Origin: Bdellovibrionia bacterium
Lineage (GTDB): Bacteria > Bdellovibrionota > UBA1018
Length of the DNA stretch: 25,298 nt
Direction: 5' to 3'
Assembly: GCA_045805065.1 (NCBI GenBank)
Contig: JBJMMA010000101.1
Coordinates: 1-25,298, forward strand
In this document: in pieces, positions 6,190-18,510 of the stretch
Numbering within the stretch: the stretch's first letter is position 1
Layout: each line of letters starts with the position of its first letter
The notes under the pieces: generated by a model
The model's database searches: none
What the model saw: only the letters and a program-made list of their open reading frames with translations
What the model was told of the DNA's origin: nothing
Program-made: the position numbers and the translations under genes

Positions 6190-6456
6190 TTAAGCGTTAA
6201 ACCGTGGACCATATCTTAGGATAAATGCGACATAGAAGAGAGCTATGGCCAGCAATATGCTCGAACCAAGCACAAAGAAGCGGTTTTCGGTCCTAAAGCT
6301 TATCCATATTCCAATTGCCATTGCCAGAAGTGTCAGAAGAACCGAAGGCCACCACTGATCTGAGAGACCATGAAGTTGAGTAGATAAAATACTGTAGGCA
6401 AAATATCCTGACATTCCGCTTGTCAATGATGTCAGAAGTGGAAATCGTCGTTTCAT
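6190..6456 (-). CDS. Small three-TM membrane protein, probable orphan immunity protein
   Basis: ATG at 6456 gives 88 aa with three hydrophobic segments. It directly follows a degenerate Rhs-core scrap. Confidence 0.55.
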   Translation of the reverse strand: MKRRFPLLTSLTSGMSGYFAYSILSTQLHGLSDQWWPSVLLTLLAMAIGIWISFRTENRFFVLGSSILLAIALFYVAFILRYGPRFNA

Positions 6457-6490
6457 GATTAGTTGCCTACCTGTGGTGATCACATCATCA

Positions 6491-6554
6491 CCCTGCAAAC
6501 CCAAATGGCTGAAACCCAGGATTGAGTCAGGAATGTTCTTCCTCAGAAGTCGTA
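6491..6554 (-). pseudogene. Degenerate second copy of Rhs core segment ([11 protein letters not shown])
   Basis: 6495-6523 matches 7391-7419 at 27/29 nt. The - strand reads [11 protein letters not shown] then TGA (6488-6490). Upstream traces of YD.F.G.NI..D are broken by indels and a stop. Confidence 0.85.
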
Positions 6555-6562
6555 GACGTATT

Positions 6563-6922
6563 TTAGTCTACAAACGCAACCCAGCTCTTGGTAACTTTTC
6601 CATTAGCGTAATTGATCGTGCAATAATATCGACCGAAGACAAATCCTTCCCAGGCCATAATTGTCATTTCTCCTGGTAGCTTTTTTTCTTCAGTGGAGGC
6701 TCCCACACTAGTCCTTAATCCGAGCTCTCTTGCTTTTTCTTCAATGCCATCGGAAGAGCCACCAACCGGCGCCGCTGCGCAAAGTTGCTCAGTGAGTTTC
6801 TTTGCCTTCGATATTTTCCATTCCGGGTACGCTATCAACAGCAAGCCAATTACTAATAAGATTCCGAGAGACTTGTACAAACCACGATAACCTAAACTCT
6901 TAGCATTCAATTTGAAGTACAT
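6563..6922 (-). CDS. Probable cognate immunity protein of the Rhs toxin tip (TM anchor + small extracytoplasmic domain)
   Basis: ATG 6922 overlaps the last 16 nt of the Rhs ORF. TM helix [16 protein letters not shown], then a small alpha/beta domain with two Cys (QLCAA, YYCTI). Confidence 0.7.
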
Positions 6923-7700
6923 GAGTTTGCCCCTCCGAGCCCCCAAATCAATTGAGACTCTGTCGGTTGAGTCTCACCAGGGCGCACATATATTAACTTT
7001 TTAAAATGATAACCAAAAGTTAGGGTATTTACCCAGGCATTTGAATGGCCATCTTTAACTAGTTGCTGAGCAAGCAGATAGTGCTCGGCGTCAGCTGCGT
7101 CCTGAGACGTATCTCCTGTTAATCTTGCACGCAATGCAAGGTTGAGAGGAGTTTCGTTTCCAAGTTTTTTCGCTCGGTTTTGATAATTGACAATCATTAA
7201 AGCTACATTAACGTCATCAAGGCCCATCGGATCGACGAAATTGATCGGATCACTCATTGTATAGCCGTAAAGATTCGTATCTCTGCCAGCAAACAAGACC
7301 GGGTCCTTCGCGAGCCATCTCCCTGCAGAGGCATCATAATCACGCGCTCCAAAGTGAGTCAAACCGGTCTCAGCATCATACATCCCACCCGCAAATCCAA
7401 ATGGCTGAAACCCTGGATTCGAATCAGTAAGGATGTTACCAAATTCATCGTAGTCCATTTGCTGAGCAACCGATCCATCAGCCGCATTGATGATGAGTCG
7501 TGGACTACCTAAGTGATTGCTGATGATCTGATAAGTCACGCCAGCCTTGATCATGTACGCAGGCACGTTGATCTTATCACCGTAGACAAACTGACTTACC
7601 ACATTGCCTGATCCATCAAGTTCAGCAGCAATCCTAAGATCATCCAAATAGAGGAAACCCTGAACCAGAGTTCCGTTGACTTGTTTTCCAATCCTGCGAT
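6907..7700 (-). pseudogene. 5'-truncated (orphan) Rhs-repeat-associated core with variable C-terminal toxin domain
   Basis: The frame is open up to the IS end: [80 protein letters not shown], then a 103-aa tip (6907-7218). Confidence 0.92.
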
Positions 7701-7729
7701 TGACCGGCTCCCAATCATTGTACCACTTT
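7701..7729. repeat. IS terminal inverted repeat (IRR)
   Basis: tgaccggctcccaatcattgtaccacttt; the first 12 nt match the reverse complement of the other end at 11/12. Confidence 0.88.
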
Positions 7730-8608
7730 CAATGTTACTTTCGGCAACTCACTCGAACTGTATAACGGCGATTTAAACTGAATCGTTTCAGGCGCAGGTG
7801 GAAGATACCCAAGAGCGCTGTGTGGTCTTTTTGTATTGTAATGCTTCCTCCACTGTTCGGTAATTACTTTTGCTTCAGTGAGCGTAAAAAAGATTTCTCC
7901 GTTTAAAAGCTCGTCTCTGAGCTTCCCGTTGAAGGACTCTACGAATCCGTTTTCCCACGGAGATCCTGGGTGAATAAATAGTGGCGCAATATCGAGCTTT
8001 GAGAACCAGATTCTTAAAATGGAGGCGATAAACTCAGGCCCATTATCTGATCGGATGTGCTCGGGACATCCTCGAGCTAAAAACAAATCGGATAGTATTT
8101 CGATCATTTCTCGAGACGTAATTCTTCTACGGACCTCAAGGCAGATGCACTCTCTTGTAAACTCATCTACAACCGAGAGAATCTTTAAAGGCCTGCCGTC
8201 GTGCGTCTTATCCATCACAAAATCATAGGACCAGACGTGATTAGGTCTCTCTGGGCGCTTTCTAACAGTGGATCCATCGGCAAGCCAGAGACGCGCTCGT
8301 TTAGGCTGTTTTTTAGGAACTTTTAGTCCCTCTTCACGCCAAATTCGGTAGACTCTCTTCACGTTAATCTCCCATCCTTCTTGCCTTAAAAGGGCAGTCA
8401 CTCGGCGATAGCCATAACGACCGTACTCGGACGCAAGCTTGACGATCCGCTCGTTCAATCTCTTTTCATCATCAGGTCTTCTCGCGACGTAACGCTGAGA
8501 GGATCTGTACTGATTTAAAGTTCGACACGCCCGGCGCTCAGACACCTTTAACTTCTTGACGACATGCTGAACCGCATCTCTTCGTCTGGCCGGGCTTAAA
8601 ACTTTCCC
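7715..8608 (-). CDS. IS3 transposase OrfB (DDE integrase core), expressed as OrfAB by -1 frameshift
   Basis: [68 protein letters not shown]. The frame is open back to the slippery site ([13 protein letters not shown]...). Confidence 0.93.
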
Positions 8609-8874
8609 TGAGCGACTTCCTTTAAGATCTGATTATCGAGCGCAAGGTTTGCTACAAGCTTTTTGAGCCTCTGATTTTCTTGCTCAAGATCCTTGAGACG
8701 CTTTGCTTGATCGATCCTGAGTCCACCGTACTCTTCGCGCCAACGATAAAAGGTTTGCGCTGTGATACCGGTCTTCTTGCAGCAGTCCTCAATGGATAGC
8801 CCTTTTCCGTTCTCAATTTCGATCGTCCGGAGATGACTGATGATCTCCTCCGGAGAGTATCGTTTCTTAGGCAT
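8596..8874 (-). CDS. IS3 transposase OrfA (HTH + leucine zipper)
   Basis: MPKKRYSPEEII, TFYRWREEYGG, RLKDLEQENQRLKKLVANLALDNQILKE; SD AAGGGAG upstream. Confidence 0.93.
   Translation of the reverse strand: MPKKRYSPEEIISHLRTIEIENGKGLSIEDCCKKTGITAQTFYRWREEYGGLRIDQAKRLKDLEQENQRLKKLVANLALDNQILKEVAQGKF
8602..8608 (-). other. -1 programmed frameshift heptamer G-GGA-AAG
   Basis: X-XXY-YYZ motif one codon before the OrfA stop (cag gga aag ttt taa); the -1 frame continues into OrfB. Confidence 0.75.
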
Positions 8875-9151: not shown

Positions 9152-9189
9152 CATGGGCCTCCCGCGATTCTAATCGCAGGAGGAAATTT

Positions 9190-10197
9190 ATGAGAGAACT
9201 AATGAAAAACAGCCTGGCCCTAACACTGGGGCTTGGCATCTTGTTGGCGGGAACCCCGTCTTACGCAATCTTTTACACCCCCGAGCGCTGCGCGTTCGAC
9301 AGCCTCAATCAATGGTCACATGATTTGGATCCCGCCCATAACGGCACAAACGCGGACGCTAAGGGTACAGCGCGCGGGAGAAATGAGTGGTTCAGAGTCT
9401 GCCAACCGGGAATCTACGATACCGTCTATCCAACTCCGAGCGGCAATCCGACTCCCGAATTCAACAATGAGTATGATCCACTCATCAGCAAAAATGGATC
9501 CCATCGTCGCGTTTACGCAACTTTCGGCATTGTCACCGGCTTTGATTCAAACGGACAAACCCTCTTTCACAACAATGCTTCTAGCGGAGCATGGGTTGCG
9601 CCTACAGTGGCAGCCGCAAGTTCCGGCGCATCCGAGTGCGCAATGCCAAGTGGCTTTAAGTTCGTTGGTCTTTGCACTTCTGGGTGCGTAACGCCTGAGC
9701 AAGAAATTGCATCTCCTCAAGGCGATCTCGCGATAGAAGCACTGGAAAAACTCGAAACTCCGGCTGTCTACGTTCCAGAAGCAGGTCTGAATGGTGGAGC
9801 TTTTCGCCTGAGCGAAATTCCAGCCAAACGGTTCGTCAAAGACGTCACGCCAGCTCAGCAAAAAGTACTGGAAGTGTCCACTCTCTCTGGCGCCAAACTT
9901 CGCGTCTCTCCCGAACACCCTTTGCTGACTGGAAATATGACTTTCTCCATCGCTCAGGATCTAAAAGTCGGCCAAACACTGATTAAGGCCGATGGCAGAC
10001 AAGATCCTATCGTTTCGATCCAGGAAACGAGCTACTTCGGAAAGCTTCACAACCTCTATGTAGACACTGCTCGCATGGATCAAAGTCTCTACATCGTTCA
10101 AGGCTTTGTGAGCGGCGACAAACACTATCAAGACGTCAGCGTTTCGGACCTGAATCGCATGGCATTGCGCAGGCTCGTTCAGGTTTCCAATAAGTAA
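9190..10197 (+). CDS. Secreted protein with C-terminal Hint (Hedgehog/intein-like) autoprocessing domain
   Basis: Signal peptide (..PSYA-IF) and a ~140-aa unknown domain with 4 Cys. Hint block A G|C166VTPEQEI, block B LRVS240PEH243PLL, AQDLKVGQTL, IVSI, KLHNLYV, YIVQGFVSG. No terminal His-Asn. Confidence 0.85.
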   Translation: MRELMKNSLALTLGLGILLAGTPSYAIFYTPERCAFDSLNQWSHDLDPAHNGTNADAKGTARGRNEWFRVCQPGIYDTVYPTPSGNPTPEFNNEYDPLISKNGSHRRVYATFGIVTGFDSNGQTLFHNNASSGAWVAPTVAAASSGASECAMPSGFKFVGLCTSGCVTPEQEIASPQGDLAIEALEKLETPAVYVPEAGLNGGAFRLSEIPAKRFVKDVTPAQQKVLEVSTLSGAKLRVSPEHPLLTGNMTFSIAQDLKVGQTLIKADGRQDPIVSIQETSYFGKLHNLYVDTARMDQSLYIVQGFVSGDKHYQDVSVSDLNRMALRRLVQVSNK

Positions 10198-10314: not shown

Positions 10315-12396
10315 ATGAATTTTCTTTCGTTGCTAATATTTCTGGTATTCGCGGCCTCTTGTAATTCGGCAACTTCCGCCACCCAAAACCACTCCCCTGC
10401 GCCAACGTCAGACAGCGGTGCCTCGGTCACTCATCACGCTCGAGTCACCTGCAAGCCGTCATCCGATCCATTGAGCTGCCTACGAACTAATTGCAAAGAA
10501 ATCGGCGCTCAATTTAACGAATCCCAAAAGCGCTGCGAATGCCCAAAAGGAAAGAGCCTGAACACAGATCAAGGCTTTGAGTGCGTTTCGTCGGGAGATA
10601 TCTCTCCAATTGCTGACTATCTTAAAATGAACATGGGAGGAGCCACCCTTTACGCTAACTCCACTTCTACTTTACAAACTTTTTTTGAACGAGATGGAGC
10701 GGCGGTTGGGCACACTTCGACTCGTGGCAGCCTCATTGTCGCTAAGGATCCGAAGGATTTAATGTCAAATGGACAGGCCAAAACTATTTTGACAGGATCC
10801 AAATGGGATCTTTTCACAGTCAATTGGTTAAACGCACCCCAACTCAATATTTCCAGCTCGGGCAATGACGGTATTGCTGACCGCATGGCCGACCTAAATC
10901 TGGATTCAAAAATTGCATTCCTGGAGCCCAATTTCCCGCTTCGAACAGGTGCAGCAGATCTGGATTCTACGATCGAACAAAGTCTGGCCCTTTCGAAAAA
11001 CGTTCCTGCCGAAGAAAATTACATCTCATATACCGAAGCGGGCTGCATCGATCAGTGTCTGGCCGACTCTCAGGTCCTTGAGAGTCATCAATTCCGTGTC
11101 ACTCGTCAGCGCTATTACTATGGTGGCACTGTAGTTCAGGATCTCATCACAGTCTTCGACCGATACAAACAAGAAGACGCAGCGGCACTCTTCCTGATTA
11201 ACGGACATCTTGCCTACTCCGTTATCCAAGAAGGCAGTGAAACCTGGTTGCATGGAAATGAAGGATCCATTGCAGAGAGTCGCATCAAGCTTCTTCAGAC
11301 CTTTCCTGATCGTACATCCATCCCAACTGAAACAGCTTTCAAAGACGAAACGCCTATCGTTATTTTTGAGAACGCAGAGAATGCGAATTTGGCGCCGATC
11401 GTGCCTCGAGGGCCTTGGAAGCAAAGCCATGTCTTTGGCTGGTTCAAACCTCAAGATGAACAACCTTTCTTCAAAAACTATCCGGGCTACAATGCTGATT
11501 TTGGCAAAGAGCATCTCGCGGGCGGTCTTGAATCCTCTCATCCGATCGCTGTCGCAAATCTCGCATCCAACAATTATCAGCACCCTTTAATCCCGCTCCA
11601 AGAAGCAGACCTTCTGAACGGAAGCTTTACGACTTTTGCAAATAACTATTCCGAAGCTCTGTCGGCATCCGCGACAAAACGTGCCACTCAACTTGTCGCA
11701 TCCGTATCTGAAGCCACGCCGATGTCCCCATCCGCTTGTCAAAACGGTCCGATTGGAAATGCAATCTCAGCTGCAAACTCTACGCTCTGGGTAATGGGAG
11801 CATCCAACTCAGGAGCAGACCTTGCCGTCGGAAAGAACATCTGTCCTCAATTATTGAACGGGAGTCGAATCATCAAGGTTGCATCATCGAGTGATGGAGA
11901 GCGACTCGTGTCAAGCTCCGCATACGGGCGTAAATCTGTCGACATTGCTGAAATCGGCTGCAGAGGCGTCCATGAAGCTAGCTGTAAATCCGAAAATGCA
12001 GCTACTTCGTTTGCCGCTCCCCGCCTGGCTCGAAAAATCGCGGACCTTGCCAATGAGTTTCCGATGGCAACGCCAGAGCAGATTCGCTTTGCAATGCTGA
12101 TCACAGCGAGAATCCCTGGAGCTGTATGCACCGGTTGGAACCATAGACACTGCGAGTATACCCAAGCACTTCCCGTCAGAAGTGGTGGCTTTGCTGATCC
12201 TCATGCAGCCAGAGTACTTCTCAGCGAACTTGCGACTCATGGCTGGCCAGATAGCTCAAAGCTTCAAACCGCTGAGTGGGTCGATCTCATCGTGCGAGCA
12301 ACCGCCGATCAACTTGACGACAAAAATGACGACCAGCGCGGACTGCTTGCTCTAGACCGCATCATCTTTCTTCGGGCTAATCAAGGAGCTCTCTAA
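10315..12396 (+). CDS. Lipoprotein with Cys-rich N-domain and divergent subtilase (S8-like) domain
   Basis: Lipobox AAS-C16 and a six-Cys module (aa 46-90). Propeptide-end-like SKIAFLEPNF. S8-like motifs IVIFE352N, SH409PIAVANLA, WVMGASN498SG, IIKVAS, SSAYGRKSVDIAEIG, ATS565FAAP, SGG. Confidence 0.78.
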   Translation: MNFLSLLIFLVFAASCNSATSATQNHSPAPTSDSGASVTHHARVTCKPSSDPLSCLRTNCKEIGAQFNESQKRCECPKGKSLNTDQGFECVSSGDISPIADYLKMNMGGATLYANSTSTLQTFFERDGAAVGHTSTRGSLIVAKDPKDLMSNGQAKTILTGSKWDLFTVNWLNAPQLNISSSGNDGIADRMADLNLDSKIAFLEPNFPLRTGAADLDSTIEQSLALSKNVPAEENYISYTEAGCIDQCLADSQVLESHQFRVTRQRYYYGGTVVQDLITVFDRYKQEDAAALFLINGHLAYSVIQEGSETWLHGNEGSIAESRIKLLQTFPDRTSIPTETAFKDETPIVIFENAENANLAPIVPRGPWKQSHVFGWFKPQDEQPFFKNYPGYNADFGKEHLAGGLESSHPIAVANLASNNYQHPLIPLQEADLLNGSFTTFANNYSEALSASATKRATQLVASVSEATPMSPSACQNGPIGNAISAANSTLWVMGASNSGADLAVGKNICPQLLNGSRIIKVASSSDGERLVSSSAYGRKSVDIAEIGCRGVHEASCKSENAATSFAAPRLARKIADLANEFPMATPEQIRFAMLITARIPGAVCTGWNHRHCEYTQALPVRSGGFADPHAARVLLSELATHGWPDSSKLQTAEWVDLIVRATADQLDDKNDDQRGLLALDRIIFLRANQGAL

Positions 12397-13055
12397 TGAA
12401 AACTAAAATCGTGCTCATGATCTTTGTGTTGATTACTATGGCTGGTCTTGCAGCTAAAAAATACGGAACCTCTTCGCCCTCAGAGACGGTCGCTGCTTCC
12501 AAAATGCGACTCATGGGTCAGAGTCAGGAAGAGCAAAAAGATGAAACCGCACAGGCCCATCCAAGCTCGGACAAAAATGAGCGCCAGCTGACACAAAGCC
12601 TGGTCAAACTTCAGGCCCTGTCCAAAATCGTGATTTCAACTCCTGAGAAGACGGCAGCTCTTCGAGATCTTCTCTCCGATCAGCGTCTGCAGGCTGAAAT
12701 CTCTCGCGTGATGGTCGACCCGGGCACTTATCAAGGCGAAGGGTTTCATCGAAAGCTTCGGCTGATAGATGCTCTTTACGAAGGATTGAAGATTCAAGAC
12801 TCAAGTCTTCAAGAACGGTATTTTACGATCGCTTCGGATGTCATGACGGTTTCTCCACCAGAGGTCATCCAGAAAGATCCAGAGCTCTTGCGGCAGTTTG
12901 TGGCAGATCGTGCTGAAATTGCGCTTTCGCTGCTCAAGGCGTTTCCAGAGCGAGCTCAGGCCATGGAACGTAAAACCACATCCGAGAGCAAAGAAGCCGC
13001 TCTGGCGTTTCAGAACGCACATCGCCTCTTATCGACCTATAACGTGTCCATTTGA
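12396..13055 (+). CDS. Membrane-anchored or secreted all-helical hypothetical protein
   Basis: Translationally coupled (TAATG, 12394-12398). Hydrophobic N-terminus, polar linker and amphipathic helices; no family recognised. Confidence 0.75.
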   Translation: MKTKIVLMIFVLITMAGLAAKKYGTSSPSETVAASKMRLMGQSQEEQKDETAQAHPSSDKNERQLTQSLVKLQALSKIVISTPEKTAALRDLLSDQRLQAEISRVMVDPGTYQGEGFHRKLRLIDALYEGLKIQDSSLQERYFTIASDVMTVSPPEVIQKDPELLRQFVADRAEIALSLLKAFPERAQAMERKTTSESKEAALAFQNAHRLLSTYNVSI

Positions 13056-16159: not shown

Positions 16160-16783
16160 TTAGGCTCCACTGGGCCAAAGCTGAGCCGGAGGTCTTTCTC
16201 CGCGATTCAAAAAGTCCTGAAATTCTTTCAAGCGTTGAGCCTGATCGTTTTTCAACGAATCCAGACGAACCGACTGCTCTTGAGTGCGTCGATCCTCATC
16301 ATCGCTTTGAATCTTTAAAAGCACTTCACGGCGACGAAGATAGTCCTGAACGTAGCCTCTACGATCGGGTCCACTCTTGTGCTCAGCAAAGAACTTGTGA
16401 CGAGCCTGGCGTTCTTTTCCTTCCCACTCGTTGAGCTGCGCTTTATGTGCGGCTCGAAGCTCTTTCATCTCGGACTTATGCCGATGCTTGAGAGCAGCCA
16501 TCTCGTTGTCCTGAGCTTTGCTGTACTGCCGCAAAAGCGTTTTGGCTTCGGAAGGCGTAACGGTTGGAGAGACCGTAGGAGTATGGGTTGGAATCGCAGG
16601 GCTTCTCGGCGGGAACAAAACCGGAGACGCGCTTGCAGTAGGTTCACCGCTTGGACTTGCCGATGGAGCTGGCGATGGCGATGCGCCGTGGACACTCGTG
16701 AGCCCATAGGACAGCCCAAATGCTCCAAGAATTCCAATAAAAGTGGTAACTCCTAACGCGGTCTTCCTTCCCAATCGAGTCAT
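16160..16783 (-). CDS. Exported Pro/Ser/Thr-linker coiled-coil hypothetical protein
   Basis: Signal/TM N-terminus, SPSPAPSASPS linker and charged helical C-half. ATGA overlap with the protease stop. Confidence 0.78.
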   Translation of the reverse strand: MTRLGRKTALGVTTFIGILGAFGLSYGLTSVHGASPSPAPSASPSGEPTASASPVLFPPRSPAIPTHTPTVSPTVTPSEAKTLLRQYSKAQDNEMAALKHRHKSEMKELRAAHKAQLNEWEGKERQARHKFFAEHKSGPDRRGYVQDYLRRREVLLKIQSDDEDRRTQEQSVRLDSLKNDQAQRLKEFQDFLNRGERPPAQLWPSGA

Positions 16784-18510
16784 CTTGATGCGGGAGTTTC
16801 CATGATGAACTCAACTTTGTCCATCTTAAAACCCCACTTGTTGATGCTCGAGTCGGCCTTGAGCCGGATGATCATCGTGTCGCCTTGAATATATTCGGAG
16901 ACATAATCATCGGCCCCGCCCGAGACCAGATCAATGACCTGGCCATTCGGCGATTCCATACTCACCGCGTCGTAATGCTGCTCAACATCAATCTTCTCAA
17001 AATGAACGCGAATATACTTTGCGCCAGGAACATGAACGGTCCAGGTCTGGTTAGTGCTCTCCACGTAAGGATGAGCTGATTCAATCACTTGATCCTGAGA
17101 CTTCCAAAGCGACTCAGGTGGATCAAGGCTTGGAGGAACGATGTTATAGAGCGCGTTGTAGGCACTCACACGGCCCTTGGACATGACTTTTCTTCCCAGC
17201 GTGCGAACCGGCGTGCTGGTCTTGATCAAACGATCCTTGATGACATCAAAGGTCCACTCGGGATGCTCGGAGGCCAGAAGTGTTGCGATGCCTGCCACGT
17301 GCGGCGTTGCCATGGAGGTTCCGCTCAGGCTCTTATAATCGCTGCCCATATACGTGCTGTAGACGTTCACGCCAGGTGCCGCGACGTGGACACGTTTTGA
17401 TCCGTAATTAGAGAAAGTGGCGAGCGTATCGCGGTTATCAATTGCAGCAACCGATACGATATTTGGAAGCTCATAGCTCGAAGGATAGGTAGGATTTTCA
17501 CCATCGTTGCTCACGCCGTCGTTTCCGGCTGCAGCGACAAAGAGAATGCCTTGAGCCTGAGCTTTCTGGATGGCTTGATACATGACATCCGAGAAGCCTC
17601 CCCCGCCCCAGCTATTGCTCATGACTTTGACTTTCATCTGGGTGGCATAGTTGATCGCGTTGACTGCAGCCTCAAGCGTGCCGCCGCCGTTGGCGTCGAG
17701 AAACTTCAGAGGCATGATGGACGTGTTCCAGTTGATGCCCGCGACTCCGACTCCGTTGTTTCCACCTGCGCCGATTACGCCTGCGCAGTGAGTGCCATGG
17801 CCATTGTCGTCGTTTGAGGTGTTCTTGTTGTCGGCAAAGTTCCAGCCATGCACGTCGTCGATGAAACCATTTCCGTCATCATCCATTCCGTTGCCGGCGA
17901 TCTCGCCTGGATTAGTGTAAAGATTTGCAGCCAGATCCGGATGATCCCATTGAACGCCGGTATCAATTACGGCTACAATGGTGTTCTTGTTTCCAACGAT
18001 TCCTTTTTCCCAAAGCGCAGCGATAGCGATGTCGCTTCCCACGTTACCTGTCTGGCCTTCGGGATCGGCCTGACCGAGATTGCTCATGCCCCATTGCTTT
18101 TGAAACTCAGGATCGTTTGGAAGGCCCTGAGCGCCAGTGCGCATGTCGAGTGCGTGATAAATGTAATTAGGTTCTGTCAAAAGCACGGAAGGTTCGCCTT
18201 CGAGGACCTTCATCGCTGAGCGAGCCAGGGGCTCGTTCTTCATCTTCACAACAGCAAGACTTGCGTCGGTTACGAACGGATGAATCTCATCGACCGATGC
18301 TTTCCCGAGTCTCATCTGCAGAGTTTGAAGAACCGCGCCTCGTCCTGCGCGTGAGCTTGCGGCATCCCGAAACTTGACCACAAACTCACCTGGGACATGC
18401 TCAGCGATGGCAGCGGGCCGAAGAGGCGCCGCATGCGCCATGGAAAATGCCAAACCACCCAACAAACTTCCAATCGTGCCGGCCGCGATGAGTTTCGGAA
18501 AAGATGACAT
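16780..18510 (-). CDS. Secreted subtilisin-like S8 serine protease with propeptide and C-terminal CUB-like domain
   Basis: Signal peptide (AHA-A), HVPGEFVVKF..TEPNY propeptide, VAVIDTG, GHGTHCAG, AAAGND, SGTSMATPHVAG. C-terminal ESAHPY..WTVHVPGAKYIRVHF..YD..DSSINKWGF. Confidence 0.95.
   Translation of the reverse strand: MSSFPKLIAAGTIGSLLGGLAFSMAHAAPLRPAAIAEHVPGEFVVKFRDAASSRAGRGAVLQTLQMRLGKASVDEIHPFVTDASLAVVKMKNEPLARSAMKVLEGEPSVLLTEPNYIYHALDMRTGAQGLPNDPEFQKQWGMSNLGQADPEGQTGNVGSDIAIAALWEKGIVGNKNTIVAVIDTGVQWDHPDLAANLYTNPGEIAGNGMDDDGNGFIDDVHGWNFADNKNTSNDDNGHGTHCAGVIGAGGNNGVGVAGINWNTSIMPLKFLDANGGGTLEAAVNAINYATQMKVKVMSNSWGGGGFSDVMYQAIQKAQAQGILFVAAAGNDGVSNDGENPTYPSSYELPNIVSVAAIDNRDTLATFSNYGSKRVHVAAPGVNVYSTYMGSDYKSLSGTSMATPHVAGIATLLASEHPEWTFDVIKDRLIKTSTPVRTLGRKVMSKGRVSAYNALYNIVPPSLDPPESLWKSQDQVIESAHPYVESTNQTWTVHVPGAKYIRVHFEKIDVEQHYDAVSMESPNGQVIDLVSGGADDYVSEYIQGDTMIIRLKADSSINKWGFKMDKVEFIMETPASR

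Follow-up and report, generated by a model that had tools for sequence, protein, structure and literature searches.

A predicted secreted Hint protein and its gene neighborhood

The window, meaning the whole stretch of DNA that was analyzed, comprises 25,298 nt of a Bdellovibrionia bacterium (Bdellovibrionota; UBA1018; assembly GCA_045805065.1, contig JBJMMA010000101.1, forward strand). The host is a soil Bdellovibrio-like predator, and the sequencing runs found for the window were four soil-metagenome DNA runs from a single study, with no RNA run among them. One gene in the window encodes P0001, in which a predicted signal peptide is followed by an N-domain, a Hint domain, and a short tail, and three further genes follow on the same strand (Table 1). 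The original prediction had described an open reading frame with a signal peptide, a Hint domain, and a tail of about 25 amino acids in a Hedgehog-like arrangement. That layout was confirmed, every residue it named lies where it had been placed, and the order of signal peptide, cargo domain, Hint domain, and short conserved tail upholds the comparison with Hedgehog. The N terminus of P0001 has a basic n-region, a hydrophobic core at residues 8 to 20 (mean Kyte-Doolittle hydropathy up to 2.45), and then S-Y-A. A signal-like N terminus was also called in 137 of 158 family proteins, and all of these calls rest on a crude hydrophobicity rule rather than a dedicated predictor.

Table 1. Features of the Hint-protein locus, with positions counted from the first nucleotide of the window
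Feature	Position	Strand	Description
Shine-Dalgarno-like AGGAGG	9178..9183	+	6 nt 5′ of the ATG at 9190, read from sequence
Hint-protein gene (P0001, 335 aa)	9190..10197	+	Open reading frame, stop codon included
Signal peptide, residues 1-26	9190..9267	+	Hydrophobicity scan; predicted signal-peptidase-I type site after S-Y-A
N-domain, residues 27-165	9268..9684	+	Four invariant Cys: C34, C71, C150, C162
Junction C162-T-S-G165 / C166	9673..9687	+	Predicted scissile bond between G165 (9682-9684) and Cys1, C166 (9685-9687)
Hint domain, residues 166-310	9685..10119	+	Block B S240-P-E-H243 (9907-9918); block-F-like G284-K-L-H-N288; end G305-F-V-S-G309-D310
C-terminal tail, residues 311-335	10120..10194	+	Single predicted helix; Q314, N322, R323, R327; predicted docking element for partner
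Putative lipoprotein, 693 aa	10315..12396	+	Weak subtilase (S8)-like region; lies between Hint gene and partner gene
Partner protein (P0159, 219 aa)	12396..13055	+	N-terminal membrane anchor/signal, low-complexity linker, ~130-aa helical domain
LRR + Kelch-repeat protein, 1012 aa	13084..16122	+	Last conserved cluster gene in this subfamily; Pfam LRR_4 and Kelch families

Nine homologues of P0001 were found at 33 to 51% identity, and a family profile recovered 1,225 representative clusters at an E value of ≤1e-3 and 176 at ≤1e-30. Members were found in Bdellovibrionota, Myxococcota, and a few Gammaproteobacteria, a distribution centered on predatory Bdellovibrionota and Myxococcota, and long forms were present in strains of B. 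bacteriovorus. No characterization of the family was found in the literature on bacterial Hint domains, Hedgehog- or BIL-type cleavage, Bdellovibrio, or Myxococcus. We conclude that the P0001 family is large, unnamed, and essentially unannotated.

The C-terminal half is a Hint fold without the residues for splicing

Intein models matched P0001 weakly. TIGR01445 (intein_Nterm) matched residues 166 to 247 over the full profile (1 to 83 of 83) with an E value of 1.7e-4 and a score of 22.5 bits, just short of the 24.5 cutoff, and Pfam Intein_splicing (PF14890) likewise fell below its cutoff (E value of 8.5e-4; 19.6 bits versus 35.8). Intein_splicing also matched 10 of 10 close family members. An AlphaFold2 model of P0001 had a pLDDT of 75.5, with the N-domain moderately confident in the full-length model. 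Foldseek with this model returned 68 PDB matches at an E value of ≤0.001, including inteins, BIL domains, and Hedgehog HhC (best E value of 4.3e-10), and VIA-align found 30 chains at a Z of ≥8, with a top Z of 18.3, covering residues 163 to 315. In VIA-align, model residues 166 to 310 aligned from the first to the last intein residue of 2imz (1 to 440), 6riz (1 to 125), and 1dq3 (1 to 454), and D310 would therefore occupy the position of the terminal Asn of inteins. We conclude that residues 166 to 310, as modeled, are a Hint fold and that the resemblance is far beyond chance.

Residue conservation was counted over 158 family proteins. Cys1 (C166) was present in 156, the other two being fragments that lack both C162 and C166; T/S240 and H243 were each present in all 158, and P244 was present in 152. 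The residue before Cys1 was G in 86 and S in 70, and no Cys occurred downstream of Cys1 in 154. Where class 1 inteins have the block-F Asp, 157 of the 158 have N288. The near-invariant residues of the family are Cys1, T/SxxH, C162, Asn288, Gly309, Gln314, Asn322, Arg323, and Arg327.

The same residues bear on whether the domain reacts at all. If the Hint domain were catalytically dead, it would be a structural or binding module in a protein that is never cleaved, and its conserved residues would serve folding and partner binding. The replacement of the block-F Asp by Asn288, the scores of curated intein models below their cutoffs, and the Hint residues in the predicted partner interface (see below) would fit such a module. 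Against it, Cys1 and T/S-x-x-H, kept across proteins this divergent and together with G/S at position -1, are the signature of an active acyl shift. Moreover, as the sole Cys of the Hint-tail unit in all but four of the family proteins, Cys1 has nothing within the domain to form a disulfide with. We regard a dead Hint domain as extremely improbable.

The end of the domain bears on which reaction would follow. G309, in 155 of the 158 proteins, replaces the penultimate His of inteins; position 310 was S in 93, T in 36, D in 24, and A in 4, and was never Asn; and position 311 was mostly A, S, V, or K. The tail is also of fixed length; counted from the G309 equivalent, its median is 27 residues (quartiles, 27 to 28). 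C-terminal cleavage by cyclization of Asp310 was set aside, with D at that position in only the minority noted above and the penultimate His absent. With no Asn at position 310, G309 before it, and only the short tail after it, splicing is ruled out, as the original prediction held. We conclude that splicing is excluded for P0001 and that N-terminal self-cleavage is the best reading of the sequence: as judged from these residues, the one chemistry left is an acyl shift at the N-terminal junction that would end in cleavage or transfer.

The N-domain is conserved and carries its own cysteines

Invariant alignment columns of the N-domain form the motifs R-C-x-x-D-S-L, G-R-x-x-W-x-x-x-C, Y-P-T-F, W-x-A-P, and C-x-x-P. 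Modeled alone, the domain had a pLDDT of 80.3 and a pTM of 0.78. VIA-align matched it to none of 48,161 PDB representatives at a Z of ≥2 and Foldseek gave nothing at an E value of ≤0.001, a comparison that covered solved structures and is not proof of a new fold; moreover, no Pfam or NCBIfam family matched. A Hedge-like or LAS-peptidase identity was set aside, as there was no conserved metal-binding His/Asp pattern and no fold match. Variability of the N-domain among homologues, a point that the original prediction had raised for checking, was not seen: mean pairwise identity was 0.461 for the N-domain, 0.444 for the Hint domain, and 0.536 for the tail, and the N-domain is thus not a variable cargo. 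It is also conserved in the long forms, which carry PKD and TSP1 domains, and mostly occurs once per genome (near-full-length matches numbered 21, spread over 20 of 151 genomes). At two loci, L083 and L084, the N-domain occurs without a Hint domain.

The cysteine three residues before the scissile Gly had been proposed to form a reactive thiolactone, with a disulfide as the simpler alternative. C162 was present in 156 of 158 family proteins, equal to Cys1, and the column of C150 held Cys in only 110. Of the 158 proteins, 109 have an even number of Cys upstream of the junction, four being the commonest count; among those with an odd number are fragments and proteins with a possible lipobox Cys. 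Proteins without Cys in the C150 column mostly still have two or four upstream Cys, which argues for a shifted Cys partner rather than a free thiol. Moreover, the Hint-less paralogues, which match the N-domain in hhalign (95%; E value of 3.8e-8), keep all four Cys and lack Cys1, and C162 therefore belongs to the N-domain's own set of Cys.

Special chemistry at C162 could take either of two forms, a C162-C166 disulfide that acts as a redox trap until it is reduced or a four-residue thiolactone at the C terminus of the N-domain. The equal conservation of C162 and Cys1, set beside the lower figure for C150, would suit either form, an engineered CxxC intein redox trap exists, and 3nzm, "DnaE intein with N-extein in redox trap," is among the structural matches. 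The retention of the C162 equivalent and the other three Cys in paralogues that have neither a Hint domain nor Cys1 argues against both, as do the two or four upstream Cys of most C150-less members and the prevailing even parity, and we give this chemistry very little credence. The thiolactone thus loses ground and the simpler disulfide is the better reading. We conclude that C162 is most likely a structural disulfide Cys and not a thiolactone former, a pairing that rests on parity and paralogues rather than on model geometry.

A membrane-anchored partner is encoded downstream of the Hint gene

The partner belongs to a group of membrane-anchored helical proteins of about 220 to 260 amino acids that are mutually homologous across p219, nb238, c13, and c47, the nb238 HMM matching p219 at an E value of 9.2e-12, c13 at 1.6e-11, and c47 at 1e-8. 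Among the 55 unique loci that have 3 kb or more of flanking sequence, the partner gene lay on the same strand and no more than 4 kb downstream of the Hint gene in 52 and was directly adjacent to it in 43; in 3 of the 55, with at least 3 kb downstream, no partner was detected. In the window, the two genes are separated by the S8-like gene. The pairing spans Bdellovibrionota, Myxococcota (Archangium and Hyalangium), and Gammaproteobacteria (Algicola and Shewanellaceae). Strains of Bdellovibrio carry the long form with the partner gene next to it. Hint and partner divergence were correlated over 58 loci (Spearman coefficient of 0.83), a result that was set aside because shared ancestry alone predicts it.

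In the partner alignment, E174 was the sole invariant residue (34 of 34) and was preceded by a basic residue, K or R, and D125 was present in 31 of 34. These two are the invariant or near-invariant polar residues of the partner, which has no conserved nucleophile. No Pfam family was common to more than 2 of the 34 members, no solved relative was found (best PDB E value of 0.037), and Pfam and NCBIfam gave nothing for the partner or for the 207-amino-acid and 160-amino-acid open reading frames of L001.

The other two downstream genes recur at some loci. Orthologues of the S8-like protein follow the Hint gene at L001 to L006, L052, L058, L066, and L081. The protein in the window matched Pfam Peptidase_S8 at residues 429 to 598 (E value of 9.5e-6) and gave no PDB sequence match at an E value of ≤0.01; among 10 orthologues, C16 was invariant and Ser564 of the T-S-F-A-A-P motif was not. 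Orthologues of the LRR-Kelch protein were found by tblastn at L001 and L003 to L006 with 33 to 45% identity, and an LRR-Kelch gene adjoins the Hint genes at L058, L066, L079, and L081.

The tail is predicted to dock onto the partner

In the AlphaFold2 model, the tail is a helix at residues 311 to 333. It is polar and slightly basic across the family (median mean hydropathy of -0.56; median net charge of +1). Conservation of both the CxxxC element and the tail, a point to which the original prediction had drawn attention, was borne out by C162 (see above) and by Q314 (157 of 158), N322 (146), R323 (131), and R327 (147).

Structure prediction for P0001 together with the partner, run on unpaired, custom-built alignments, gave a complex score of 0.75, and the best of three controls gave 0.00. 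Of 157 solved complexes, 116 reach the mark applied, as do 2 of 215 mismatched pairs, rates that are rough, own alignments having been used. The score would not be recall of a known complex, because no solved relative of the partner exists. Three runs shared at least 62% of contacts, with a partner pLDDT of at least 85. The pairs of lowest error were R323-E174, L326-E174, and R327-E174, and more broadly the lowest errors linked tail residues R323, L326, R327, and V330 to partner residues 121, 170 to 174, and 207. Further tail pairs reached partner residues 121, 166 to 173, 177, 207, and 211, and D125 was also in the interface. The predicted interface included Hint residues 196 to 198, 246, 250 to 252, and 290 to 300 and touched N-domain residues 27 to 35, 113, 115, and 159. 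Partner residues in the interface had a mean conservation of 0.591, versus 0.538 for the rest, a difference that was not significant (one-sided Mann-Whitney P of 0.083). We conclude that the tail is predicted, with controls, to dock onto the partner.

By analogy with the trailing region of Hedgehog, which recruits cholesterol, the original prediction had the N-domain released attached to a lipid, a small molecule, or a target surface. That analogy was weakened, since the tail is short and polar, unlike the Hedgehog SRR, and is predicted to dock on a protein. Given the conserved downstream partner and the predicted docking of R323 and R327 on E174, what the tail recruits is probably a protein and not a lipid.

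A conserved, codirectional gene pair with a small membrane-anchored second member could also be an effector and its immunity protein. The N-domain would then be a toxin, acting in the periplasm or directed at prey, the partner would confer immunity, and the Hint domain would only mature or release the effector. The predator-centered distribution of the family and the N-domain residues in the predicted interface are in keeping with such a pair, but the contacts of lowest error fall on the tail and not on the N-domain. Moreover, the Hint-less paralogues of L083 and L084, from two related genomes, carry no partner gene in the roughly 2 kb of flanking sequence covered, and the N-domain, which matched no toxin family, is conserved and mostly single-copy rather than polymorphic. 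PT-HINT domains sit upstream of a variable C-terminal toxin and release that toxin. P0001 resembles them in having a Hint domain in a secreted bacterial protein, and the Pretoxin-HINT model (PF07591) weakly matched 7 of 10 close homologues (best E value of 4.4e-7) but not P0001 at an E value of ≤1. In P0001, however, the Hint domain is terminal, only the 25-residue helix and nothing variable comes after it, and the conserved domain lies on its N-terminal side. We consider an effector-immunity pair very unlikely.

Relation to known Hint systems

Hint domains have three known outcomes, splicing in inteins, cholesterol transfer in Hedgehog, and toxin release in PT-HINT proteins. Inteins end in Asn (rarely Gln or Asp) after His, followed by a +1 Cys, Ser, or Thr and a C-extein, whereas P0001 has G309-D310-K311. 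With the Hog part of Hedgehog, P0001 shares the order of parts, the Gly/Cys junction, the trailing region, the missing terminal Asn, and the absence of splicing, and its model superimposed on Hedgehog HhC (1at0) with a Z of 18.1 and an rmsd of 2.0 over 134 residues. In sequence the two are further apart: the 16 PDB matches of the family profile at an E value of ≤1 included inteins and a BIL domain, and none was a Hedgehog chain, and Pfam Hint (PF01079) did not match P0001 at an E value of ≤1 and matched 2 of 10 relatives (best E value of 0.0017). The cargo also differs, the N-domain of P0001 being unrelated to any solved fold. In Hedgehog, another catalytic Cys, C143, lies toward the end of the Hint domain, and the P0001 family has no equivalent (for the role of C143, see PMC12054796). 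The Hedgehog SRR is a hydrophobic helix-loop-helix of 50 to 100 residues according to the accessible text of PMC7242414, whereas the tail of P0001 is one polar helix of 25 residues that is predicted to bind a protein. The Hint-less N-domain copies have a parallel in nematodes, for which PMC2362128 lists Hog-less "ground-like" and "wart-only" genes.

BIL domains are bacterial Hint domains of secreted or variable proteins. They have no +1 nucleophile, and cleavage is their main reaction. One from Clostridium thermocellum (2lwy, type A) tied for the top structural match (Z of 18.3; rmsd of 2.1; TM of 0.84 by target). Type A BILs end in His-Asn with no +1 nucleophile (PMC4031507, in part), whereas the P0001 family has Gly309 and then Asp, Ser, or Thr. 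Type B BILs, which cleave without splicing, bear no resemblance to block G of inteins and the end of P0001 likewise differs, a likeness drawn from description only; Pfam Hint_2 did not match P0001 or 10 close members at an E value of ≤1. The fixed N-domain, invariant tail, and partner gene of the P0001 family are not described for BILs in the available part of PMC4031507.

Also similar in outline is an unnamed group of bacterial proteins with a C-terminal Hint-like domain (MXAN_6253, STIAU_1829, plu1731, and others) in the accessible part of Buerglin 2008 (PMC2362128), which cites Dassa and Pietrokovski as having first noted it. Judged by eye from the printed alignment, those proteins, too, are secreted, have conserved upstream Cys, carry the Hint-like domain at the C-terminal end with motifs A and B, and occur in part in Myxococcota. 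In the same comparison by eye, their block-F motif V-[YF]-N-L and their end G-G-F-L-V-G-D-x-x-M-Q correspond to L-H-N-L and G-F-V-S-G-D-K-H-Y-Q in P0001. According to the same part of that paper, they differ in being 530 to 650 amino acids long with another N-region, in having N-S-C, Y-G-C, or Y-S-C junctions without Cys at position -4, and in their tail motif (L-P-x-x-W-x-x-D-[YF]-x-N); it gives no function, cleavage test, or partner gene for the group. We conclude that the P0001 family is unlike the known Hint outcomes in combining a Hedgehog order of parts, a fixed cargo, a short tail that is invariant, and a membrane-anchored partner of its own.

A model for N-domain release

We think it probable that P0001 is a Sec-exported precursor, built like Hedgehog on a separate bacterial Hint clade, that releases its own N-domain and whose tail docks on the membrane-anchored partner. 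After export via Sec, the four Cys of the N-domain would form two structural disulfides, one of them with C162 at position -4. C166, the sole remaining Cys, would attack the carbonyl of G165 with the aid of S240 and H243 in an N-S acyl shift, and water or an outside nucleophile would resolve the thioester. Resolution would occur only at the N-terminal junction because the terminal Asn, penultimate His, +1 nucleophile, and C-extein are all missing. The released N-domain of about 15 kDa would be the functional product. The 25-residue tail helix, unlike a sterol or lipid recognition region, would dock through R323 and R327 onto partner E174, and with this docking on a membrane-anchored protein, the precursor or spent Hint-tail fragment would stay tethered to the inner membrane on its periplasmic side. 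Asn288 in place of the block-F Asp, the conservation test of the partner interface, the unpaired alignments behind the complex prediction, the three partner-less loci, and the gap between the Hint and partner genes in the window count against this model, in which all structures are predicted ones. Domain order, conserved residues, exclusion of splicing, and the gene pair come from sequence, structure prediction, and comparative genomics; the docking of the tail is a prediction with controls; and cleavage itself, the resolving step, and the function of the N-domain are inferred.

The same reaction could end as in Hedgehog, with a specific nucleophile in place of water resolving the G165 thioester and the N-domain leaving with a covalent adduct at its C terminus. 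The acceptor could be the head group of a membrane lipid, an amine in peptidoglycan, or a residue belonging to a different protein, and the partner or tail would position it, all else being as in the release model. The matching architecture points in this direction, and the identity of the tail and its near-invariant polar residues exceed what a passive linker would need. As the partner is membrane-anchored and predicted to hold the Hint-tail unit, the thioester would sit near the membrane. Of the 158 family proteins, 111 have an acidic residue (D or E) at position 218, which we take to lie roughly at the site of the Hedgehog general-base Asp, but 45 have Ser there. Type A BIL domains can ligate their flanks via the thioester (PMC4031507, available part). 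Against transfer, the tail of 25 to 27 residues is polar and far from the hydrophobic SRR (PMC7242414, accessible text), the partner has no conserved nucleophile, and the family has no equivalent of the Hedgehog Cys C143 (PMC12054796, available part). We consider transfer unlikely, and release of the N-domain as set out above remains our preferred reading.

Transfer could be taken further, to a bacterial counterpart of Hedgehog made of two genes. The partner would capture the tail, the membrane-held thioester would meet a nucleophile other than water, and the N-domain would become covalently anchored to the envelope. This we judge distinctly unlikely. If true, it would be a sortase-independent, enzyme-free route of covalent anchoring in Gram-negative predators. 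In this two-gene arrangement, the nucleophile could be the head group of a phospholipid, an amine in peptidoglycan, or a further protein of the envelope, the target could be the envelope of predator or prey, and in the long forms the PKD-TSP1 arrays would be anchored as well.

Hedgehog processing is often regarded as a eukaryotic invention, and cholesterol is often treated as its sole natural small-molecule acceptor. A bacterial system with Hedgehog logic would show whether hydrolysis or transfer was the ancestral way of resolving the thioester, and it would supply a self-cleaving tag of a new kind together with the protein on which it docks. For the biology of Bdellovibrio, the family marks a conserved secreted module.

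Hint domain of P0001

P0001, the Hint protein of the window, opens with basic residues, followed by a hydrophobic stretch (residues 8 to 20) and S-Y-A, features recognized by our own crude rule rather than by a trained predictor. The NCBIfam model TIGR01445 (intein_Nterm) matched residues 166 to 247 over profile positions 1 to 83 of 83 (E = 1.7e-4), its score of 22.5 bits falling just below the cutoff of 24.5, and the Pfam Intein_splicing match (E = 8.5e-4) was likewise below its curated threshold. When an AlphaFold2 model of P0001 (10 sequences; pLDDT 75.5) was used as the query, Foldseek returned inteins, a bacterial intein-like domain and Hedgehog HhC with E values down to 4.3e-10, and VIA-align gave tied rows at a Z of about 18 (2lwy, 18.3; 8ubs, 18.2; 4o1r, 18.2; 1at0, 18.1). 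It is the predicted structure that settles the Hint identity of the domain. The original prediction had read the protein as a Hint domain in which another ending replaces the intein terminal pair, and the residues that it named (C150, C162, the G165-C166 junction, S240-P-E-H243, and G305-F-V-S-G-D310 with 25 residues after it) are all correctly placed. Moreover, the VIA-align register ran from residue 1 to the last residue of several inteins over model residues 166 to 310, and D310 therefore stands at the terminal-Asn position and G309 at that of the penultimate His. The tail beyond is modeled as a helix spanning residues 311 to 333.

In the Hint domain, Cys1 and the T/S-x-x-H pair are kept, the residue at −1 is small, and Asn288 stands where class 1 inteins have the block F Asp. 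P0001 has neither a terminal Asn nor a penultimate His, and neither a +1 nucleophile nor a C-extein, which excludes splicing. The only reaction that the conserved residues support would be an N-S acyl shift at G165-C166 followed by resolution of the thioester, and the central proposal of N-terminal cleavage or transfer rather than splicing holds to that extent. In 154 of 158 proteins, the Hint-tail unit has no cysteine other than Cys1, and thus there is no counterpart of Hedgehog C143, which is described as forming a branched intermediate (PMC12054796).

Features of the window and related loci
Feature	Location	Strand	Remarks
Orphan RHS C-terminal fragment and small ORFs	6190-7647	-	RHS fragment, 246 aa
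IS3-family transposase, two ORFs	7715-8874	-	HTH_Tnp_1 orfA, 8596-8874; rve/rve_3 orfB, 7715-8545
AGGAGG	6 nt 5′ of Hint gene ATG	+	read from sequence
Hint gene	9190-10197	+	ORF, 335 residues
S8-like protein	10315-12396	+	693-aa putative lipoprotein, weak subtilase-like region; first gene 3′ of Hint gene
Partner protein	12396-13055	+	219 aa; second gene 3′ of Hint gene
LRR plus Kelch protein	third gene 3′ of Hint gene		1012 aa
Second subtilase, clearly canonical	16780-18510	-	Peptidase_S8, E = 5.6e-63; fervidolysin-like prodomain, C-terminal CUB domain
Hint-less N-domain paralogues	L083:1500-2412, L084:1417-2799		tandem genes; Bdellovibrio-type genomes G126, G099

Family size and distribution

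A word-indexed search found nine relatives of P0001 at 33 to 51% identity, and a profile of the 10 sequences searched against 1.84 billion representatives matched 1225 proteins at E ≤ 1e-3; the stricter limits of 1e-10 and 1e-30 left 436 and 176, respectively. Conservation was counted over 158 proteins aligned to the profile (150 of the matches plus the first set). T/S240 and H243 were found in all 158, N288 and Q314 in 157, C162 and Cys1 (C166) in 156, the two exceptions for Cys1 being fragments, G309 in 155, K/R285 in 154, P244 in 152, G284 in 150, R327 in 147, G305 and N322 in 146, and R323 in 131; conservation of C162 and the tail in homologues, proposed as a check, is thus borne out. Position 165 was G in 86 and S in 70, and position 310 was S in 93, T in 36, D in 24 and A in 4. 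From the G309 equivalent to the protein end the median was 27 residues (quartiles, 27 to 28; range, 22 to 161; n = 157). Many members are about 300 aa long and others, of 800 to 1100 aa, carry the same module at the extreme C terminus; among 24 members scanned, PKD matched in 9 and TSP1_ADAMTS in 9. Long forms, found at loci L008 to L050 in B. bacteriovorus and relatives (e.g., L026:5017-7758), have PKD and thrombospondin type 1 repeats upstream of the N-domain, Hint domain and tail. We conclude that the P0001 family is large.

The close subfamily has six genome loci, each from Bdellovibrio or Bdellovibrionales, and 43 long-form loci are Bdellovibrionota by their titles, including several B. 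bacteriovorus strains, with one titled just "Proteobacteria bacterium". A third subgroup occurs in Bacteriovoracaceae, Oligoflexia, Silvanigrellaceae, Myxococcota (Archangium gephyra, Hyalangium) and Gammaproteobacteria (Algicola sagamiensis and a Shewanellaceae MAG), and the nearest ESM Atlas clusters, mostly from Myxococcota, are unnamed or called "Hint domain-containing protein". In a sample of the phylum, 40 of 151 genomes had some match at E ≤ 1e-5. Near-full-length matches (E ≤ 8.4e-58) numbered 21 in 20 of the 151 genomes, which makes the family patchy in occurrence and, as a rule, single copy; it is present once in the genome of the window. Two members lie on opposite strands within 4 kb in A. 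sagamiensis (L054:3776-4666 and 6529-7419) and two in tandem in a Silvanigrellaceae MAG (L061:2913-4582); the family is therefore not always single copy.

N-domain and C162

The domain preceding the Hint domain was considered as variable cargo. Within the close subfamily, however, the N-domain is as conserved as the Hint domain (mean pairwise identity, 0.461 and 0.444; tail, 0.536), which indicates that it is not variable cargo. Long forms also carry the N-domain, placed after the TSP1 region and ahead of the Hint domain. A model of residues 29 to 165 from 37 sequences was confident (pLDDT 80.3, pTM 0.78); with this model, VIA-align against 48,161 PDB representatives gave nothing at Z ≥ 2, and Foldseek nothing at E ≤ 0.001. 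As far as these fold searches show, a Hedge or LAS-type identity is rejected.

For C162, the original prediction had offered either a reactive thiolactone or a disulfide with C150. The commonest number of cysteines upstream of Cys1 was four, and the number was even in 109 of 158 proteins; among the proteins with odd numbers are fragments and some with a possible lipobox cysteine, and two or four upstream cysteines remained usual in members that lack one in the C150 column. Moreover, the N-domain also occurs in paralogues that have no Cys1 and no Hint domain: those of L083 have a signal peptide, four cysteines in register and a Pro-rich tail. The N-domain alignment matched one of these by hhalign (95% probability, E = 3.8e-8), and an N-domain HMM matched four such ORFs in two genomes (E = 3.9e-11 to 9.7e-10). 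Because C162 is kept where the Hint domain is absent, it would belong to the N-domain fold. The even counts and the Hint-less paralogues speak for a disulfide and against a thiolactone, and we favor a structural disulfide, of which we infer the exact pairing. The Hint-less genes parallel the Hog-less "ground-like" genes of nematodes.

Partner gene and predicted complex

The gene order 3′ of the Hint gene was the same by tblastn in close-subfamily loci L001 and L003 to L006, and L002 stops within the second gene. ORF clustering of 80 loci found a protein of about 220 to 260 aa just 3′ of the Hint gene in every subgroup, i.e., long forms, Myxococcota and gammaproteobacteria. An HMM of one such group, nb238, matched the groups p219 (9.2e-12), c13 (1.6e-11) and c47 (1e-8), and the c13 HMM matched c47 at 5.4e-16. 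Based on these profile matches, we conclude that the downstream proteins and the 219-aa protein of the window are one family. Counted on unique loci, after removal of 13 that repeat the same contig region, the partner gene was on the same strand within 4 kb in 52 of 55 loci with at least 3 kb of downstream flank and directly adjacent (≤150 nt) in 43; with at least 900 nt of flank, the counts were 58 and 48 of 64. In long-form loci it was directly adjacent in 41 of 42. Hint-less paralogues, examined in two related genomes only, had no partner gene in the flanks covered.

In the partner, a hydrophobic anchor at the N terminus is joined through a low-complexity linker to a helical domain of some 130 residues, with E174 invariant (34 of 34 sequences) and D125 in 31 of 34. 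It has no consistent Pfam family and no solved relative (best PDB E, 0.037), and its Atlas neighbors are all unnamed proteins of Myxococcota and Bdellovibrionota. Prediction of a complex between P0001 residues 27 to 335 and partner residues 60 to 219, with alignments of 44 family sequences (A2) and of partners (A7), scored 0.75 (runs, 0.74, 0.75 and 0.86), and the best of three controls scored 0.00. Among solved complexes, 116 of 157 attain this mark, as do 2 of 215 mismatched pairs, counts that are approximate here since our own alignments were used. Contact agreement between runs was at least 62% and partner pLDDT at least 85. The lowest-error contacts joined tail residues R323, L326, R327 and V330 to partner residues 121, 170 to 174 and 207, including R323-E174, L326-E174 and R327-E174. 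The near-invariant tail arginines are thus predicted to meet the sole invariant residue of the partner, an agreement not built into the prediction; taken together, however, the partner residues at the interface showed no significant excess of conservation over the others (p = 0.083). The model supports, rather than shows, binding of the partner to P0001.

Within the cluster, an ORF of about 160 aa with no NCBIfam match lies between the partner and LRR/Kelch genes elsewhere (L001:11585-12073, L005:11707-12267, L006:11634-12128); the window has 28 nt there and no counterpart. Invariant cysteines of the S8-like protein are Cys16, whose surroundings resemble a lipobox, and six others, and the 10 orthologues compared do not all keep the Ser of the T-S-F-A-A-P motif. 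Judging from that motif, some genomes may carry a pseudo-protease form of the protein.

Comparison with known systems

By sequence, the Hint domain of P0001 is closer to inteins and BILs than to Hedgehog: a profile search of the PDB gave 16 matches at E ≤ 1, among them the CDC21, NrdJ-1, KlbA, RadA and DnaE inteins and the C. thermocellum BIL, but no Hedgehog chain. Among the 10 close members, Intein_splicing matched all 10, PT-HINT 7 and Pfam Hint (PF01079) 2. The architecture works like that of Hedgehog, yet P0001 does not qualify as a Hog domain protein, an intein, a type A BIL or a PT-HINT protein. The nearest published parallel is an unnamed group of bacterial, partly myxobacterial, secreted proteins with a C-terminal Hint-like domain and conserved upstream cysteines, which Buerglin 2008, crediting Dassa and Pietrokovski, describes in a passage that gives no function (PMC2362128). 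Compared by eye, the alignment printed there shares V-Y-N-L and the end G-D-x-x-x-Q with the P0001 family, whereas junction, tail and N-region are different. Literature searches found no characterization of either group. We conclude that the finding on P0001 is real. Several points are new: how large and widely distributed the family is, its fixed N-domain without a solved-fold match and the Hint-less paralogues, the probable structural role of C162, and the conserved partner gene with its predicted docking on the tail.

Other features of the window

The second subtilase converges on the Hint cluster from the opposite strand and was not found in related loci. Directly upstream of the Hint gene lies the IS3 element, and the window does not share its upstream genes with the related loci L001 to L006. 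The RHS fragment matches Teneurin YD-shell profile positions 764 to 870 of 909 and the Rhs_assc_core domain; its N-terminal bulk is missing, and the IS3 element occupies the place where that bulk would be. Two small unannotated ORFs (6563-6946 and 6190-6504) follow the fragment and are possibly a toxin tip and its immunity gene.
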